IMG/VR virus record: IMGVR_UViG_2778261498_000010
Span: 1-7,002 of that record
Length of the DNA: 7,002 bases
DNA from: a virus
Lineage: Duplodnaviria; Heunggongvirae; Uroviricota; Caudoviricetes
Strand: one strand, 5' to 3'
Shown: positions 1 through 7,002 of the stretch, one piece after another
Layout of the letters: every line of letters starts with the position of its first letter
How positions within the stretch are numbered: position 1 is the first letter of the stretch
Translations under genes and position numbers: made by a program
Notes under the pieces: model-generated
Told to the model about the DNA's origin: nothing
Seen by the model: the letters and a program-made list of their open reading frames with translations, nothing else
The model's database searches: none

Positions 1-465
1 ATGCGTTTCTGCCTTATTTTGATCACAGCACTGTTTCTGGCCGGGTGTAGCCACCATAAAGCACCGCCGCCAAATGCCAGACTTTCTGATTCGATTACCG
101 TTATTGCCGGTTTGAACGACCAGCTACAGAGCTGGCATGGCACGCCGTATCGTTATGGTGGCATGACGCGGCGCGGTGTGGACTGTTCGGGGTTTGTGGT
201 TGTGACGATGCGCGATCGTTTCGATTTGCAGCTGCCCCGAGAAACCAAAGAACAAGCCTCTATCGGCACGCAAATTGATAAAGACGAGTTGCTGCCTGGT
301 GACCTGGTCTTTTTCAAAACGGGCTCCGGACAAAATGGTTTGCATGTAGGTATTTACGATACCAACAACCAATTTATCCACGCCTCTACCAGCAAGGGAG
401 TGATGCGTTCCTCACTCGATAATGTTTATTGGCAGAAAAATTTCTGGCAGGCGAGACGAATCTAG
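1..465 (+). CDS. nlpC: NlpC/P60-family lipoprotein (predicted peptidoglycan endopeptidase)
   Basis: 154-codon ORF beginning at window base 1. N-terminal lipoprotein signal with lipobox LAGC. NlpC/P60 catalytic context DCSGF ... HVGIY ... IHAS. Recognised from memory as essentially E. coli NlpC. Promoter and RBS lie outside the window. Confidence 0.88.
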   Translation: MRFCLILITALFLAGCSHHKAPPPNARLSDSITVIAGLNDQLQSWHGTPYRYGGMTRRGVDCSGFVVVTMRDRFDLQLPRETKEQASIGTQIDKDELLPGDLVFFKTGSGQNGLHVGIYDTNNQFIHASTSKGVMRSSLDNVYWQKNFWQARRI

Positions 466-474
466 TATGTCGAA

Positions 475-507
475 AAATTGACGGCGATGATACATCGCCG
501 TCAATTT
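475..507. terminator. Perfect palindrome (15-bp arms, 3-nt spacer) just downstream of the nlpC stop; candidate intrinsic or bidirectional terminator, or protein-binding site
   Basis: Seen directly: aaattgacggcgatg-ata-catcgccgtcaattt. GC-rich stem core. Only a partial T-run follows on the plus strand (atttact); TTTTT follows on the minus strand. Confidence 0.4.
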
Positions 508-541
508 ACTCCAGAATACAGTAGTATTTTGCAGACAAAAA

Positions 542-578
542 TTCCGTAAATGGATTATTCGTTTATAATCAGGATAAT
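542..578 (+). promoter_or_regulatory. Candidate sigma70 promoter region for ydiV
   Basis: Consensus -10 hexamer TATAAT at 564-569 and a second -10-like GATAAT at 573-578 in an AT-rich intergenic region. No convincing -35. It would imply a 5' UTR of roughly 130 nt before the ydiV ATG at 712. Confidence 0.2.
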
Positions 579-711
579 CTAAAAAAAGGACCCCTGAAAA
601 AGTGGTTAACATGGAACAAATGAAAGTTACTCCTTCTGTAATTGTTATGTCTTATGGCCTCATCCCTTTTAGCCGGATACTGAAAAACATCCTTCGAGAG
701 GGACGGTTACC

Positions 712-1323
712 ATGAAGATTTTTTTGGAGAATCTTTATCATTCTGATTGCTATTTCCTGCCGATAAGAGATAACCAGCAAGACCTTGTCGGCGTTGAGTT
801 AATTACCCATTTCTCCAGTGAAGATGGTACGGTTCGTATACCGACGAGTCGGGTTATAGCGCAACTTACCGAGGAGCAACATTGGCAATTATTTTCTGAG
901 CAGTTGGAATTGCTAAAATCATGCCAACACTTTTTTATTCAACATAAACTCTTTGCCTGGCTTAATTTAACCCCGCAAGTGGCTACTTTATTATTAGACA
1001 GGGATAATTACGCGGGCGAACTATTAAAATATCCGTTTATTGAACTGTTGATTAATGAGAATTACCCGCATCTCGATGAAGGAAAAGATAATCGCGATCT
1101 TTTTTCCTTATCGCAAATGTATCCCCTTGTGTTAGGTAATTTGGGCGCAGGCAATAGCACAATGAAAGCGGTTTTTGATGGTCTTTTCACCCGCGTCATG
1201 CTGGATAAAAGTTTTATTCAGCAACAAATCACGCATCGCTCCTTCGAACCGTTTATTCGTGCGATCCAGGCGCAAATTTCCCCATGTTGCAATTGCATCA
1301 TCGCGGGGGGCATTGATATGTAA
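712..1323 (+). CDS. ydiV: EAL-like (degenerate) anti-FlhD4C2 factor YdiV; the ORF closes at 203 codons, apparently short at the C-terminus
   Basis: ORF with RBS-like GAGGGA 8 nt upstream of the ATG. Translation recognised as YdiV (degenerate EAL domain, IIAGGID in place of the usual AEGVET-type block). From memory the E. coli protein is ~237 aa, so ~34 C-terminal residues including the expected QG-containing end motif are missing from this frame. Synteny nlpC then ydiV is as in E. coli. Confidence 0.8.
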   Translation: MKIFLENLYHSDCYFLPIRDNQQDLVGVELITHFSSEDGTVRIPTSRVIAQLTEEQHWQLFSEQLELLKSCQHFFIQHKLFAWLNLTPQVATLLLDRDNYAGELLKYPFIELLINENYPHLDEGKDNRDLFSLSQMYPLVLGNLGAGNSTMKAVFDGLFTRVMLDKSFIQQQITHRSFEPFIRAIQAQISPCCNCIIAGGIDM

Positions 1324-1354
1324 CTTCGCGTTTTTTTCTGGGCTAATTGGCGCG

Positions 1355-1396
1355 CAATTCTGGGCGGAGAGAGCGCAACCAAAAAGCCCAGAATTG
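1355..1396. repeat. 11-bp perfect inverted repeat (caattctgggc / gcccagaattg) with 20-nt spacer; a third copy of the 8-mer ttctgggc lies at 1336-1343
   Basis: Seen directly. It sits in the interval between the end of the ydiV reading frame and the invertase stub. Confidence 0.5.
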
Positions 1397-1433
1397 GACG
1401 CTAAATTATTAGTCTCATACTGATGATTTACCC

Positions 1434-1529
1434 TCAAAAAATCAGCTCATATCCTGCACAGTTCAACGCATTGCGTTGTAAATCGGTGTTCTGGTCATTT
1501 GTTGATGCGCGTACATAGCCTATAAACAT
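1434..1529 (-). pseudogene. Serine invertase (Pin/Gin/Hin/Cin family) N-terminal stub: 31 codons then TGA
   Basis: Minus-strand translation from the ATG at 1529: MFIGYVRASTNDQNTDLQRNALNCAGYELIF*. It matches the extreme N-terminus of Din-family invertases, including the catalytic Ser context GYVRxSTxDQ. No downstream frame continues the family sequence. The ORF is below the six-frame track threshold, so it was found by hand. Confidence 0.8.
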
Positions 1530-1583
1530 GGTAGATCACCCTGACAAAAGCAGGAATGATGCCATTTGCTCGCTATTTCTGCC

Positions 1584-1609
1584 TTTTCATAAACGTTGGT
1601 TTGGGAGAA
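1584..1609. repeat. Right inversion crossover site (hix/gix-like, 26 bp)
   Basis: Read on the minus strand: TTCTCCCAAACC-AA-CGTTTATGAAAA. It matches the left site in 22 of 26 positions; the inner half-site and AA core are identical. It lies immediately upstream of the invertase stub start, as gixR lies before gin in Mu. Confidence 0.7.
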
Positions 1610-2095
1610 GGCTCTGCATTACCTGTTGGTGTCCCTGTTCCGTGGCCTTCAGCCACTCCGCCAACAGGCTGGCTGAAATGCAATGGTGCAGCTTTTTCTG
1701 CTGAAGAATACCCGGAACTGGCAAAAGTTTACCCGACAAATAAATTGCCTGATTTACGTGGTGAGTTTATTCGTGGCTGGGATGACGGGCGGGGGATTGA
1801 TACAGGTCGCTCTATTTTAAGTATTCAGGGGTATGCAACGGAGGATCATGCTCATGGATTACCGTCAAGATCCACGATTGTGACTGATGCAACGATTAAT
1901 TTCTATTTTGATGAAAGCTGGGTAAATAGTGGCACTGACATTATCAAAAGAGGAAACACAAACGATGCCGGATTACCAGCACCGGATTATGGAACCTTTA
2001 AAACATATAAACAATCAGTGGCTGGTTTAGGTGCCGCAGCCTCAGAAACGCGTCCGCGTAATATTGCATTTAACTATATCGTGAGGGCAGCCTGA
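1598..2095 (+). CDS. Alternative side tail fibre C-terminal cassette (S'v-type, tail-collar-like receptor-binding domain); promoterless, in the OFF orientation
   Basis: Coding begins in frame at the inner half of the right crossover site (NVGLGE). Tail-collar-like motif GWLKCNGAAF..YPEL...LPDLRGEFIRGWDDGRG. The six-frame track extends the ORF to 1556 (ATGATG), but those codons lie outside the invertible segment in the invertase promoter region and are probably not a real start. Stop overlaps the Tfa' start (TGATG). Confidence 0.75.
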   Translation, partial: GLGEGSALPVGVPVPWPSATPPTGWLKCNGAAFSAEEYPELAKVYPTNKLPDLRGEFIRGWDDGRGIDTGRSILSIQGYATEDHAHGLPSRSTIVTDATINFYFDESWVNSGTDIIKRGNTNDAGLPAPDYGTFKTYKQSVAGLGAAASETRPRNIAFNYIVRAA

Positions 2096-2697
2096 TGCAT
2101 AAAGCAATATTAAATAGTGAGCTCATTGCAACAAAGGCAGGGGATGTTACCGTTTATAACTATGATGGTGAAACACGGGAATATATTTCCACTTCAAATG
2201 AATATCTTGCCGTTGGTGTCGGCATTCCGGCATGTTCCTGTTTAGATGCCCCTGGCACACATAAGGCTGGTTATGCAATCTGCCGTTCTGCAGATTTTAA
2301 CTCATGGGAATATGTGCCAGACCATCGCGGTGAAACGGTCTATAGCACCAAAACAGGAGAATCAAAAGAAATCACCGCTCCGGGTGATTACCCTGAAAAT
2401 ACAACCACTATCGCCCCATTAACGCCATACGATAAATGGGATGGTGAGAAATGGGTGACCGATACTGAGGCACAGCATAGCGCCGCAGTAGATGCAGCAG
2501 AAGCACAGCGCCAGTCGCTGATTGATACTGCAATGGCTTCCATCAGTCTGATTCAACTGAAATTGCAGGCCGGACGTAAACTGACGCAGGCAGAAACAAC
2601 CCGGCTTAACGCTGTGCTGGATTACATTGACGCGGTGACGGCAACAGATACCAGCACCGCGCCGGATGTCATCTGGCCTGAACTGCCGGAGGCGTAG
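2095..2697 (+). CDS. Tail fibre assembly protein Tfa' (chaperone for the alternative cassette)
   Basis: 200-codon ORF whose start overlaps the cassette stop. C-terminus DTSTAPDVIWPELPEA is typical of the phage tail-fibre assembly (Tfa/U) family. Resembles e14 TfaE from memory. Confidence 0.85.
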   Translation: MHKAILNSELIATKAGDVTVYNYDGETREYISTSNEYLAVGVGIPACSCLDAPGTHKAGYAICRSADFNSWEYVPDHRGETVYSTKTGESKEITAPGDYPENTTTIAPLTPYDKWDGEKWVTDTEAQHSAAVDAAEAQRQSLIDTAMASISLIQLKLQAGRKLTQAETTRLNAVLDYIDAVTATDTSTAPDVIWPELPEA

Positions 2698-3109
2698 GCC
2701 ATTCAATATCTGGCGCACCGGAAGTATCGACCAGTTCCAGTGCGTCCAGGTAATCCAGCCACAAATTATATTGCGCCAGTTCGTCACCTTTCAGACGACC
2801 AATAGCCGCTTTACCAGGCCATTGTTTACTGTTCATATAATCGTTGGCCTGATTAATCAATTGCTGCTTCTCCAATTCGGCTGCAGCAATTTGTTCCTCA
2901 TGTGTTGGTGGTGGAATTTCAGACCATGCAGGAAAACCATTTTCTCCAGCGATACGGATTTTTCCTTTCGGCGGTAATCCGGAAAACTCAATATACACTT
3001 GCTCATCAACTTCAACAGCATCATCTGGCCATGAGTCAGCTTGAGTGTAATCCTCTTTCATCTCCAGCGGATAGAAAGAGTTTGTAGTCGCGGAATATAT
3101 GTAATTCAT
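2669..3109 (-). CDS. Tail fibre assembly protein Tfa (chaperone for the currently expressed fibre)
   Basis: 146-codon ORF with RBS GGAG 8 nt upstream of the ATG at 3109. N-terminus MNYIYSATTNSFYP and C-terminus DTSGAPDIEWPTPP are Tfa-family hallmarks. Its 3' end overlaps the convergent Tfa' by 29 bp. Confidence 0.85.
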   Translation of the reverse strand: MNYIYSATTNSFYPLEMKEDYTQADSWPDDAVEVDEQVYIEFSGLPPKGKIRIAGENGFPAWSEIPPPTHEEQIAAAELEKQQLINQANDYMNSKQWPGKAAIGRLKGDELAQYNLWLDYLDALELVDTSGAPDIEWPTPPAVQAR

Positions 3110-3130
3110 TTTTCACTCCATATAGCTAAA

Positions 3131-3775
3131 TTAACAGCCTAACGCTAAAAATGAAGCGCCGAGGCCAGGAGTACTGGCTCTGGATATAAATTTAACCGGG
3201 TCGGGACTAAAACCTGCACAGGCAATATAACCAACAGCCCCGCTATCTGGTGTGTAGTCTTGTGAGACCAAAACACGCAGACATCTGTTTGGAAATGCAA
3301 TCGGGAAATGGGTTACTACATCCTGTGCAATGCCTGGTGCGCCGATTGAGCCCCACTGAAGAATAAAACCTGATGGTAATTTTTGATATCCAGTACCTGA
3401 AACAGAAAGCGTGAAGCTACCCATATCAGGTATCTGATTCGCCCCTGTCCCTACATTCCTTTTAGCCGCTTCTCCCAAACCAAGGTTTTTGAGAGCCGTG
3501 TTCACCGTGCCATCCGATTTGATATCGCCAAACGGATTCTTGCGGCTTAACAGCAGCGCACGAAGCGCGGTAAGTAGCTGATCCGTTTTTTGGGGGTCAG
3601 GTTGAATATGTGCACTACCAAGAACATTAAGGAGTTCCTGCTGTAAATCACGGGTTGCCCCCTGCTGATTATTTAAATAATCAGCAGTTACGATGGTTCC
3701 TTCTATCCCCTGAGTGGGGTCACCATCATGAAACAATTGATCCGGTGTATTTATCGGGGGCATCAGATTTTGCAT
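3131..3775 (-). CDS. Side tail fibre protein (Stf): constant N-terminal ~98 residues plus currently fused variable C-terminal domain
   Basis: 214-codon ORF; the start ATG overlaps the upstream gp48 stop (TAATG). The left crossover site lies at codons ~94-102 (ALKNLGLGE). Size and position resemble e14 StfP. Followed by Tfa. Confidence 0.8.
3470..3495. repeat. Left inversion crossover site (hix/gix-like, 26 bp) inside the fibre gene
   Basis: Plus strand TTCTCCCAAACC-AA-GGTTTTTGAGAG. From memory this closely resembles hixL (TTCTTGAAAACCAAGGTTTTTGATAA) and gix. It is in inverted orientation relative to the site at 1584-1609. Confidence 0.7.
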
Positions 3776-4347
3776 TACTGCTCCTCCTTATATGTGAAAT
3801 GGCAATAAGTAAAAGCGGGTTTAAGGTCTTTAAATGTTTCTTCCAGTACAGGGGCACCAAAGGAAAGTAACGGTTCCCCGGCTGCAGATACTCCGGTTCT
3901 GAATCTGTAAGCTGGCGTTTTGCTTCCTGTGACATTAACCTGCCAAATCCATCGGGCATCTGTTATATAGAGACGATCACCACATCGGTTTACCCCCGTT
4001 CTGAATGGATGGAGTTCAGTAATTGTTATGGTGTACCCGAGGCTGACTGCAAGTTGTTTAAAATAAGGGATAGATAACCCACCAGTTGCAGCCATCTTTA
4101 TAAGAATATTTTCTCGGCGTTCCTGCTGTGTGGCACCATCGCGGGGTATTACTCCATACACTCGTTCCCAGTCAGACAGCGTCATGGATGCGTAAAATGG
4201 TGTGACAGATGCGAGCACTCGTGCAGCTGACGCTTTTACTTCATCCATAATGGCTGCTTCTGCGTTCAGTTCTGCTGAAATATATTTCCCGTTCGGGTCA
4301 TAGCTGACCGGTGGTAACATGGCACGAAATAAATCAACCGTATTCAT
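3775..4347 (-). CDS. gp48/YmfQ-like tail protein (DUF2313-type), upstream partner of the tail fibre
   Basis: 190-codon ORF between the baseplate J-like gene and the fibre gene, the position occupied by ymfQ in e14 and gp48 in Mu. GGAG-containing RBS. Family assignment from memory of YmfQ-like proteins. Confidence 0.7.
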
Positions 4348-4350
4348 GTA

Positions 4351-5430
4351 TTAACTCTCCCGGGGAAATGGCTGGATATCAATACTCCCCGGACGCAGCC
4401 ACTCCCATGTGGATTCATTGACAACTGCTTTTACATTATCTGACGGCATAATAATCCGCCGATCACTGACGCCAGAAATTAATGAAATCTGAGTTTCCAG
4501 TTGTGAAATAATTAATTCCTGCCCCGGTTCCAGTCGGTTCATAAAATCCGTGATAACTTCAGTTATCTGTGGTTTTATCTGTTCAACAGTAAGGCCACTG
4601 GTTTTTATTCTGACAACAAAATCAACGTTTTTTTTCGTTGGTGCCAGTACCATTGTATCCTTCGCCGTTACCGGGCGGACATCATTGATATGGGCCATCA
4701 CCGCGTTAATCAGCTCCTGTGACGGTAAATCATTTGCAGAAGTGATAACCACATCAACCGTACCGGGGCCACGACGTAACGGCTCCACGTATGCAGAGGT
4801 AACACCGTCAACTTCCAGCGCCCAGCGTTTGTAATCATATTTATTACCGCCAGCGGGCGGCCTGCGCAGAATATCCAGATAACGCGCCAGCAGGCCGGCG
4901 TCACTTTCCCTGTCCGTTCCGCCGGTCAGGGATTTAATCGTCACCGTGCTGTTGATGCCTTCCGGCGGGCTGACCAGCGTTGCCGTCTGCGTCGTGGATG
5001 CATTCGTCTGTGCACCCGTGGCGGTGCTTTTTACCGTCACCTCTGCGCTGCCTTCATCACCGATGGTGCAGTCTGCTGTGGTGGCCACGCTGACACCTTC
5101 ACCACGAATTTCCGCACCGGCTGGCAGCGTCTTACCGGGTGCGCCGGTAATCACTACCGGACCGGATGAGGCCGTTGCTTTTTTACGAAAAACATTGCGC
5201 GTACGACAGTGCAGCTCCAGATATTCAGGGTCAGCCGTGTCAGGAAACACCTGACGGAGGATCCATCCCTGATGCATATAAAGTCCGTCCGCCACGCCGG
5301 ATACGGCATTTGCACGAATGCGGTAATCGCTGTCAGCGCTGGTGTCGATGGTTTCTCCCGGCAGGGCGTTAGCGATATCACGTAGCTGGCGTTCTGTGTT
5401 TTCAGCAACGCCCGGAACAGGAAACGGCAT
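4351..5430 (-). CDS. Baseplate J-like protein (Mu gp47 / P2 gpJ family)
   Basis: 359-codon ORF with size, position and sequence character typical of baseplate J-like wedge proteins. Start overlaps the upstream gp46 stop (TAATG). Confidence 0.8.
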   Translation of the reverse strand: MPFPVPGVAENTERQLRDIANALPGETIDTSADSDYRIRANAVSGVADGLYMHQGWILRQVFPDTADPEYLELHCRTRNVFRKKATASSGPVVITGAPGKTLPAGAEIRGEGVSVATTADCTIGDEGSAEVTVKSTATGAQTNASTTQTATLVSPPEGINSTVTIKSLTGGTDRESDAGLLARYLDILRRPPAGGNKYDYKRWALEVDGVTSAYVEPLRRGPGTVDVVITSANDLPSQELINAVMAHINDVRPVTAKDTMVLAPTKKNVDFVVRIKTSGLTVEQIKPQITEVITDFMNRLEPGQELIISQLETQISLISGVSDRRIIMPSDNVKAVVNESTWEWLRPGSIDIQPFPRES

Positions 5431-5780
5431 TACATAATCCTCACAGGGTGTTCAAATGTCTGCGGTGTGCCCGCGTTATCCGTGACGGTGATTAACAGCA
5501 ACAGCCAGCCGCGCTGACCCGGTTTCGTGTCAACAGTAATGGATTTTGCCCGCCCGTCATTGAGCAGGGGCTGAAGTGCCTGGCTGGCATACTGCGCCGC
5601 CAGCCAGTGAACACGGGAAACGTCTTTTTCCCGCTTCAGCTCGTGCAGGCGTGACCCCAGCAACGCATCCGCCCAGTAACTGCCAAGCGGTGTCGCCAGT
5701 CGCAGATAAACCGCGTTATGGAGTGTGTAAATCCGGCGGCGTTCGTAGTCGCCGGTTGCAGGTGAAATCGTCTGGTCCAT
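5430..5780 (-). CDS. Mu gp46-like small baseplate protein
   Basis: 116-codon ORF between the V/gp45-like and J/gp47-like genes, the conserved position and size for gp46-family proteins. Confidence 0.65.
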   Translation of the reverse strand: MDQTISPATGDYERRRIYTLHNAVYLRLATPLGSYWADALLGSRLHELKREKDVSRVHWLAAQYASQALQPLLNDGRAKSITVDTKPGQRGWLLLLITVTDNAGTPQTFEHPVRIM

Positions 5781-5833
5781 GCCGCCAGTCTGGCAGCATG
5801 GACAGGTCAGAATCAGGTGAGGGTGTTCAGCAC

Positions 5834-6487
5834 TTAATTAACCGGCGTGTCAGACATGCCGTGTGGGGTCGGGTGTTTGTGCGTTCCGATTTTAACGCCA
5901 TTAATGGTGACGTCAACGGAGGTAATCACACCGCTTGTGTGGTTGATGTTGCCTTCAAAGGTGGCGGCGTATTCATTACCTCCACGGATGGCCATGCCAC
6001 CGTTGCCGGTGATTTTGCCTTCCACCGTCAGCCTGTTGCTGGCTGTCAGTAACGGTGTCGTGAATGCGGCGCTTTCCTCTGCCTCAACCTCATAGCGTTT
6101 GCATTTCACGCGATAAACATCACATTCATGCTCAATAACCCGCCCGCGCTTCAGTACGATTTTCGCGCCTTCATCGGTATACAGGGCCACCTCGCCGGGT
6201 TTCAGTTCCGTCAGGCGATATGCGCCGTGCTCGGTGGCCACGACGACGGTATGGGAGGTATTACCGTTCAGCGGAACAGCAATACCCATTGAACCGGGCG
6301 GCGGGGATGTGGTGAGGCCGTAATGCTGAAAATACTCCGCACCGTCCAGCTGTTCGCCTGCCAGCCCGTTCAGCTGGAGAAGCTGTACTTTGGTCGAACT
6401 GTCCACCGTACCGGTCACCACCCTGAATGCCTGGCGAACGGCGACCAGTGCCTGCTGTATGCGCTGATTAACCTTGTCCCACATCAT
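5834..6487 (-). CDS. Baseplate assembly protein V / Mu gp45-like (baseplate spike)
   Basis: 217-codon ORF. C-terminal ...GVKIGTHKHPTPHGMSDTPVN and central beta-rich region are typical of the gpV/gp45 spike family. Start ATGATG overlaps the gp44-like stop. Confidence 0.75.
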   Translation of the reverse strand: MMWDKVNQRIQQALVAVRQAFRVVTGTVDSSTKVQLLQLNGLAGEQLDGAEYFQHYGLTTSPPPGSMGIAVPLNGNTSHTVVVATEHGAYRLTELKPGEVALYTDEGAKIVLKRGRVIEHECDVYRVKCKRYEVEAEESAAFTTPLLTASNRLTVEGKITGNGGMAIRGGNEYAATFEGNINHTSGVITSVDVTINGVKIGTHKHPTPHGMSDTPVN

Positions 6488-7002
6488 TTCTCCCAGACCT
6501 TAACAATGGCGACCTCTTTTTTCTTTTTGCCCCTGCGGTGATGGCGTTTCTTCTCGCGCGGGAAGGCGTCAGGTATCCACACGCCGTCCTCCTTAAAGCG
6601 AAGCCGGGTTGTCTGCCCGTTCCGGCCTCCGCTGAACTCACGCCCCATCAGGAAAAAGATGGCATCAATGCCGTGGAGTTCGCTGACAATCCGCACCCGC
6701 TGACCGGGCTGCCACAGAACACCATCTGCCGTGCGATGACCTGCAACCAGTGCGACGATATCCAGCCCCGACAGGCGGGCATCACTCATCATTTTTTTTG
6801 CGCGCCAGCTCACCTGCTCCAGATTGCTGGTGTCGCCCTGGGTGATAATCTGCGGGCGGTAATAATCCACGGTGGGGTCGGTGGCCACGGCTTTCATGTT
6901 ATGAATGCCTGTCTGACCACTGTCCGTATTACCGCTGTCCTGCCCGGATAATGTGCGCACGCTGCCGTCCTCGTTCCAGATATCCAGCGGCACCACGGCC
7001 AC
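6484..7002 (-). CDS. gp44/gpD-like baseplate hub protein, C-terminal part only (5' end beyond the window)
   Basis: Open frame running to the window edge with no start inside the window. Its position immediately upstream of the V/gp45-like gene matches the Mu gp44 / P2 gpD slot. Assignment rests mainly on gene order. Confidence 0.55.
   Translation of the reverse strand: MAVVPLDIWNEDGSVRTLSGQDSGNTDSGQTGIHNMKAVATDPTVDYYRPQIITQGDTSNLEQVSWRAKKMMSDARLSGLDIVALVAGHRTADGVLWQPGQRVRIVSELHGIDAIFFLMGREFSGGRNGQTTRLRFKEDGVWIPDAFPREKKRHHRRGKKKKEVAIVKVWEK

Follow-up and report, generated by a model that had tools for sequence, protein, structure and literature searches.

The 7,002-nucleotide (nt) stretch of DNA analysed here (positions 1 to 7,002 of the IMG/VR virus record IMGVR_UViG_2778261498_000010; hereafter, the window) very probably carries an e14-type invertible P segment, located at the right end of a Mu-like transposable prophage that interrupts ydiV, complete in its cis-acting parts and dependent on a Din-family invertase supplied in trans. 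Inversion of the segment would exchange the C-terminal part of a short tail fibre together with its Tfa chaperone. A preliminary description of the window had proposed a tail-fibre inversion switch with two alternative receptor-binding cassettes. The whole of that observation, including all of its numbers, held up on re-analysis. The only amendment to its reading is a point that it did not raise, namely that the invertase gene is absent. Relatives of this prophage that lack the gene in the same way occur in both orientations.

Crossover sites, reading frames and fibre cassettes

The features of the switch are as follows (aa, amino acids; ORF, open reading frame).

1420-1529, minus strand: 5' stump of a pin/gin-type serine invertase gene; 31 in-frame codons (MFIGYVRASTNDQNTDLQRNALNCAGYELIF), a 1-nt frameshift and a stop
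1445-1508, minus strand: putative Fis-dependent recombinational enhancer, made up of GCATCAACAAATGAC (1494-1508) and GTGCAGGATATGAGC (1445-1459)
1556-2095, plus strand: StfE-type ORF, 179 aa; its leader of 14 codons starts at an ATG of its own and is joined at the crossover site to the silent cassette
1584-1609, minus strand: pixR-type crossover site, TTCTCCCAAACC-AA-CGTTTATGAAAA, core at 1596-1597
1598-2092, plus strand: alternative (silent) receptor-binding cassette of 165 codons; Pfam Collar (PF07484), E = 4.6e-15
2095-2697, plus strand: Tfa' chaperone for the collar cassette, 200 aa, TfaE-like; Pfam Caudo_TAP, 5.5e-33
2669-3109, minus strand: Tfa chaperone for the expressed cassette, 146 aa; Pfam Caudo_TAP, 1.5e-37
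3131-3481, minus strand: expressed variable C-terminal cassette of 116 codons; Pfam Gp53-like_C (PF21882), 1.6e-14
3470-3495, plus strand: pixL-type crossover site, TTCTCCCAAACC-AA-GGTTTTTGAGAG, core at 3482-3483
3484-3775, minus strand: constant fibre N-terminus, codons 1-98, outside the invertible segment

The sequence was re-read directly, and the two 26-base-pair (bp) sites were found at the coordinates, on the strands and in the inverted orientation that had been given for them. They are identical at 22 of 26 positions. The unit formed by the inner half-site and the core (14 nt), which had been described as identical in the two sites, occurred exactly twice in the window with 0 mismatches, compared with 0.05 occurrences expected by chance, and none of 200 shuffles gave two matches. 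When each site is read in its own orientation, the core dinucleotide is AA in both, and the segment between the two cores is 1884 bp long. An inverted repeat search recovered the sites as a 24-nt, 92%-complementary pair with a spacing of 1858 nt, the second-longest inverted repeat in the window. The preliminary description had called for an alignment with hix-, gix-, cix- and pix-type sites, and the sites do align. Among the published Din-family crossover sites, which include pixR, pixL and hixL (Table 3 of PMC3241671), the left site is identical to pixR at 26 of 26 positions and the right site to pixL at 25 of 26. The one difference from pixL is a C-to-T change at position 21, with which the outer half starts as in hixL. 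By these matches, the window sites are classified as Din-family crossover sites of the pix type.

That the two sites are within coding sequence and specify one and the same peptide would be expected if the inverted repeat were merely a conserved N-x-G-L-G-E coding motif of two fibre genes and not a recombination site. On the other hand, the agreement with published pix sites includes the non-coding-equivalent outer half beside the pin stump, and natural isomers, described below, break exactly within these repeats, for which the chance expectation is only the 0.05 given above. The coding-motif explanation was ruled out by the pix-site match, by the breakpoints of the natural isomers and by the inversion reported for strain E2348/69 (Goldberg 2014; see below), and we regard its chance of being correct as negligible.

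The reading frames were mapped codon by codon, and the inverted fibre was built in silico. In the fibre ORF (3775 down to 3131, minus strand; 214 aa) the site encodes N97-L-G-L-G-E102, and in the ORF at 1556-2095 it encodes N13-V-G-L-G-E18, in agreement with the earlier placement of both sites inside fibre coding sequence with N-(L/V)-G-L-G-E in frame. The core, read as TT, forms codon positions 2 and 3 of both L98 (3483-3482) and V14 (1596-1597). Exchange at the 2-bp core therefore keeps the frame, as had been claimed, and the fibre obtained by in silico inversion is an open ORF of 263 aa in which the cassette is in frame at the exact crossover position. The lengths of the constant part (98 codons), of the two cassettes (116 and 165 codons) and of the two fibres (214 and 263 aa) were all recomputed and were unchanged.

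The constant part of the fibre is related to the tail fibre of Mu. In a PDB sequence search, fibre residues 44-110 matched residues 47-118 of Mu tail fibre S (5yvq, 8ju3; E about 0.004), and in related genomes the identity to the constant part ends at the site. The PDB sequence matches of the expressed cassette were R-type pyocin fibres (6ct8, 6cxb), a putative tail fibre (4mtm) and a short tail fibre (9zd7), and those of the collar cassette were the tip of T4 gp37 (2xgf; 1e-17), a short tail fibre (9cuy; 7.5e-18) and T4 gp12. By their Pfam and PDB relatives, the two C-termini are assigned to different receptor-binding families, Gp53-like_C and Collar. The Collar match agrees with the tail-collar-type domain that had been named for the 165-codon cassette, and two Caudo_TAP ORFs are found where Tfa' and Tfa had been placed after the collar cassette and the expressed cassette, respectively. 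Tfa' is close to tfaE of e14. The two Tfa genes are convergent, the 3' end of Tfa overlapping Tfa' by 29 bp, and both cassettes and both Tfa ORFs are intact. A constant Mu S-like N-terminus, two variable ends and convergent Caudo_TAP genes correspond to the Sc-Sv, U, U', S'v logic of the Mu G and e14 P segments, to which the switch had been likened.

Invertase stump and carrier prophage

An adjacent gene for a small serine invertase is a defining feature of Din-family systems, and the window has no such gene. Comparison of the stump with e14 pinE, with Mu gin and with intact invertase genes (197 aa) from P2-like prophages showed homology over the first 93-110 nt only; of the 555-594 nt of an intact gene, about 107-110 nt survive. 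ORF listing and Pfam searches across the window detected no other recombinase ORF. Since pin is reduced to a stump and the window contains no other recombinase, the switch is unable to flip on its own.

Din invertases require a Fis-bound enhancer in cis. The stump contains only two 15-mers of the form G-N13-C, GCATCAACAAATGAC and GTGCAGGATATGAGC; measured from the pixR core, their centres lie at 95.5 and 144.5 bp, which gives a spacing of 49 bp. No gaps are needed to align this stretch with the 5' end of Mu gin or of e14 pinE, and the pin homology runs approximately 25 nt past the distal 15-mer. In Mu as in the window, about 67 bp separate the centre of the site from the invertase start codon, and the 5' sequence of the invertase gene is conserved between the two. 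For comparison, the enhancer of Hin measures 65 bp, carries Fis sites at both ends and is situated on the hin gene about 99-100 bp from hixL (PMC3798978; PMC9368917). The stump appears to span the position of a putative Fis-binding enhancer at its native distance from pixR, and the Hin figures, together with position and homology, suggest that this stretch would act as one. The deletion took the enzyme but left the position of the putative enhancer and, on its other side, the phage end of approximately 100 bp.

The features that identify the carrier are listed below.

1-465: nlpC, the first gene of the window
712-1323: ydiV ORF, cut to 203 aa; homology to other E. coli ydiV ends at 1318, which places the prophage junction at 1318/1319
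1319-1419, no strand assigned: right terminus of the Mu-like transposable prophage, beginning 5'-TGTAACTTCGCG (TGTAAC)
3775-4347, minus strand: Mu-type baseplate gene gp48/YmfQ; Pfam Phage_Mu_Gp48
4351-5430, minus strand: Mu-type baseplate gene gp47; Pfam Baseplate_J
5430-5780, minus strand: Mu-type baseplate gene gp46; Pfam GP46
5834-6487, minus strand: Mu-type baseplate gene gp45; Pfam Phage_Mu_Gp45

By these features and the complete homologue described below, the window most probably covers the right-hand end of a Mu-like transposable prophage, with ydiV as its insertion site. The ydiV junction was present in no complete E. coli genome of the collection. The insertion truncates ydiV, which encodes an anti-FlhDC factor, and the flagellar and motility regulation of the source strain may be altered. 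The apparent source contig, NLVE01000066.1, stops at the right edge of the window (7002). An assembly break thus interrupts the prophage there, and its left end and the rest of ydiV lie outside. Just 3' of nlpC, a perfect 15-bp hairpin with a 3-nt loop (475-507) is probably the nlpC terminator.

A complete homologue of the prophage, 35.7 kilobases (kb) in length, splits eutC in enteropathogenic E. coli (EPEC) E2348/69. Its genes include those for a repressor, Mor, a Mu-type transposase and, annotated downstream of the latter, an AAA ATPase, as well as lysis, head (one of them Mu-like) and tail genes. The element ends are TG...CA. The target duplication in eutC is ambiguous, being either CACT (4 bp) or 5 bp with one mismatch, and the 5 bp expected for Mu are unconfirmed. 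When the element end was aligned with the right end of Mu (attR), only the initial TG was similar; it is thus the gene content, and not the end sequence, that makes the element Mu-like. In the terminus of the window, the motif TTCTGGGC occurs in two direct copies (1337 and 1358) and one inverted copy (1386-1393). In the E2348/69 copy (locus L007, 3936-4100 and 39560-39671) a TTCTGGGC(GG) motif is found at both ends, with three direct copies at the left end. These repeats are possibly transposase-binding sites.

The truncated pin gene is not confined to the window. A search with positions 1319-1440 found a full-length match in 26 complete E. coli genomes. The stump and end in 16 examined loci represent 14 insertion sites, several of them inside genes (mhpT, scpC, hyfB, eutC and others), and the phage end and the pixR core are separated by 277 nt in 15 of these loci and by 275 nt in the other, L016. 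It is therefore apparent from the constant stump and end that the pin truncation belongs to the phage lineage and not to this locus. The exact fibre protein is encoded on two NCBI assemblies (L004 and L005). L004 carries the same prophage, 99.9% identical over 3.7 kb, at another insertion site, with different host DNA right after ...CGCGAAGTTACA. An ancestor of the lineage with an intact pin was not found; H143 carries the same stump, and H146 is a relative without an invertible segment. In the phage collection, no close relative of the baseplate module or of the end module was detected, and the cassettes alone were matched, in P2-like phages.

Several variants of the locus were noted among the relatives. 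In E. coli SCAID WND1-2021 (L017, 4501-7081), the phage end (95 of 122 nt matched) and the baseplate genes are the same and the tail-fibre gene is a different, single one; the stretch shown has no annotated pin stump or Tfa gene. In E. coli 47-1826 (L021, 4778-7090) the segment is longer (2312 bp) and contains an extra 'phage tail protein' ORF between the sites; this may be a three-cassette variant. In the RefSeq annotation of L009, L011, L013, L018, L019 and L022, several genomes have the tail-fibre gene or its fragments called 'integrase' and the pin stump entered as a partial 'hypothetical protein'. These labels are annotation errors that hide the switch.

Inversion in relatives and supply of the invertase in trans

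Three cassette pairs of the stump-bearing lineage were observed in both orientations, and in two of these the isomers share an insertion site and have segments that are 99.9-100% identical. Strains 20KM0223N and MEI148-20EC (L012 and L013) carry the prophage at the same insertion site next to yeiP, and their flanks show 100% identity over 4792 and 2486 bp. Between the flanks, 1874 bp also match at 100%, but only as the reverse complement, and the alignments overlap by the 15-nt inner repeats of both sites. GPEC349-628 and GPEC1176 (L022 and L023), which likewise share one insertion site, differ by the same kind of inversion. The third case is that of E2348/69, in which the segment is inverted relative to those of tcmA_3 and E423 (L009 and L019) at 99.7-99.8% identity.

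Inversion within single strains has been described for the E2348/69 prophage. Goldberg et al. (2014; PMC4272514) sequenced four single-colony cultures of EPEC E2348/69 and list in Table S1, for the 'Mu' prophage, an inversion at NC_011601.1 2749478-2751398. The forward orientation amounted to 60+/-8%, and all reported loci were validated by polymerase chain reaction. The pix sites of L007, converted to NC_011601.1 coordinates, are at 2749471 and 2751380. On the basis of this coordinate match, the reported inversion spans the two pix sites of the stump-bearing E2348/69 prophage. The word 'invertase' does not occur in the supplement of that paper, and the searched passages of its main text are silent on the missing invertase of this prophage. 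Taken together, the relatives in both orientations and the culture data on E2348/69 indicate that the orphan switch of the lineage flips efficiently in vivo.

A number of points weigh against a working switch in the window. The right site differs from pixL by one base. The enhancer is placed by position and homology, its centre-to-centre spacing here is 49 bp, and mapped Fis sites of pin or gin were not located in a literature search limited to accessible texts. The window locus, represented by a single assembly, offers no direct evidence of flipping, and the only other copy of the exact cassette pair in the Mu-like lineage (L004) is in the same orientation. Moreover, a K-12 pinE deletion mutant has a P segment locked in one orientation (PMC12529663), and therefore supply in trans from the chromosomal PinQ is not always sufficient; the pinE deletion may also have removed the enhancer.

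The shared orientation of the window and L004, the fixed K-12 mutant and the reduction of pin to about 110 nt would all fit a locked fossil, in which sites and cassettes are intact, the segment never inverts in this strain since the invertase is gone, and the collar cassette and Tfa' are silent baggage. However, relatives with the identical stump occur in both orientations at the same insertion site in 99.9-100% identical DNA, the E2348/69 homologue flips to about 60:40 in single-colony cultures, and both cassettes and both Tfa ORFs of the window are intact. We consider a locked segment unlikely, and flipping in the source strain is likely.

In the mechanism that we propose, a serine invertase would bind both 26-bp pix sites and cut at the AA/TT cores (1596-1597 and 3482-3483), and the 1884-bp segment would rotate between the cores. 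The Gp53-like C-terminus and the 146-aa Tfa would thereby be replaced by the tail-collar C-terminus and the 200-aa Tfa' on the 98-codon constant part. Flipping would be expected only in cells that also produce another Din-family invertase, for example from a P2-like or e14-like prophage resident in the same host. Gin, Cin, Pin and Hin reportedly complement one another, as Plasterk et al. are said to have found in 1983. In K-12, the e14 P segment is inverted by PinQ, which the Qin prophage encodes (PMC12529663, Kirigo et al. 2025). MEI148-20EC contains an orphan switch as well as a P2-like prophage whose 197-aa invertase is intact, and two P2-like prophages with phase-variable loci are described for E2348/69 (PMC4272514). 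In addition, pinE-like genes with at least 80% coverage were found in 1179 of 5426 complete E. coli genomes. Such genes are possible invertase donors, and possible donors are common in E. coli.

Relation to known inversion systems

The closest described counterpart is the e14 P segment of E. coli K-12 (pinE, pixL/pixR, stfP-tfaP/tfaE-stfE), which is like the window segment in its sites (26/26 and 25/26) and gene order, and which is reported as invertible in K-12 (PMC4272514, PMC12529663). The two are 94.7% identical over approximately 1.4 kb comprising the pin 5' end or stump, pixR, the collar cassette and tfaE, and a second alignment, at 91%, covers pixL and the adjacent constant region. The e14 tfaP and tfaE genes share the same 29-bp overlap as Tfa and Tfa' of the window, and in both elements a leader ORF lies beside pin and a short fibre (about 210 aa) follows the YmfQ/gp48 gene. 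In contrast, e14 retains its own pinE, whereas pin of the window is cut to about 110 nt; StfP and TfaP are unrelated to the expressed Gp53-like_C cassette and the 146-aa Tfa; the segment is 1797 bp long in e14 and 1884 bp in the window; and the carrier is a lambdoid remnant and not a Mu-like transposable prophage.

The likeness to e14 extends to the ORF at 1556-2095, which aligns with the e14 stfE region and has an AGGA upstream of its ATG. Chimeric leader-cassette products are known for e14 (PMC12529663). StfE2, formed in K-12 when the e14 P segment inverts, prevents the adsorption of T2 (PMC12529663). By analogy, the relevant output of the window switch could be short 'headless' proteins, made of leader and cassette, that serve the host as receptor-blocking anti-phage factors. 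The own ATG with its upstream AGGA and the alignable leader region are in keeping with this possibility. However, the expressed cassette here differs from e14 StfP, and a promoter scan found no convincing promoter-like site for the leader ORF. Unlike e14, the lineage looks complete and mobile, with the full gene set of E2348/69 and 14 insertion sites, and a host-range role in the virion is therefore the simpler reading. As the main output, headless proteins seem improbable to us, even more so than a locked segment; their formation is nevertheless compatible with a trans-dependent fibre switch.

The E2348/69 'Mu' prophage belongs to the same lineage as the window prophage and has the same right end, pin stump, constant fibre part and baseplate genes; it differs in carrying another cassette pair and in its insertion in eutC instead of ydiV. 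The Mu G segment with gin occupies the same place as the window switch: it follows directly on the gp47/gp48 baseplate genes, at the right-hand end of a transposable phage. The Sc-Sv-U/U'-S'v logic is the same, and the constant part is homologous to Mu S. Mu differs in having an intact gin followed by com and mom, a GA core, a 3-kb segment with long fibres, and terminal sequences that are unrelated except for the TG start.

The cassettes themselves have their nearest relatives elsewhere. In the P segments of P2-like prophages (e.g., those of E. coli ABWA45 and MEI148-20EC), the whole inter-site segment is 99.4-99.8% identical to that of the window, positions 1593-3492 matching L014 5001-6900 and L015 4998-6897. 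These prophages differ in that the constant part is the N-terminus of a long P2 H-type fibre and an intact 197-aa invertase gene lies beside the Gp53-like cassette. The Mu-like relatives of the window carry other cassette pairs. To judge from this distribution of near-identical segments, unrelated prophages seem to exchange their P segments whole, as modules.

A further P segment, 99.2% identical to that of the window, is present in E. coli PCP06173 (L002, 3971-6668), where invertase sequence occurs on both flanks: to the left there is a partial copy of 123 nt, to the right a full pinE. This segment is bounded at each end by a pixR-type site, and no constant fibre part is adjacent.

That an invertase from another prophage can flip a P segment has a precedent in the action of PinQ on e14 (PMC12529663). 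That case differs in that e14 retains pinE, whereas supply in trans would be the only source for the window switch. From its sites and organization, the switch is placed in the pix/Pin branch of the Din family and in the fibre-switch class of Mu G and e14 P.

This type of switch is textbook biology, and the find alone changes little. A mildly new point is the lineage-wide loss of the invertase with all cis elements, including the putative enhancer, kept; it is not mentioned in the examined parts of the related papers. Annotation pipelines that seek a recombinase beside inverted repeats will miss such loci or call them dead. The lineage is a natural system for asking how much of the invertase 5' end is required in cis and whether P-segment cassettes pass between unrelated prophages via shared pix sites.

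In a broader proposal, towards which we lean slightly, a still-mobile Mu-like lineage of E. coli has permanently lost its invertase and kept the cis parts (both pix sites and a putative Fis enhancer in a stump of approximately 110 nt at the phage end). It would switch its host range with invertases borrowed from co-resident P2-like or e14-like prophages and swap whole P segments with them. If this is true, the bet-hedging of the phage would depend on which other prophages the host carries. Worth noting is that a widespread and apparently mobile prophage lineage retains a working inversion switch without a recombinase of its own; the phase variation of one prophage would then be under the control of another.

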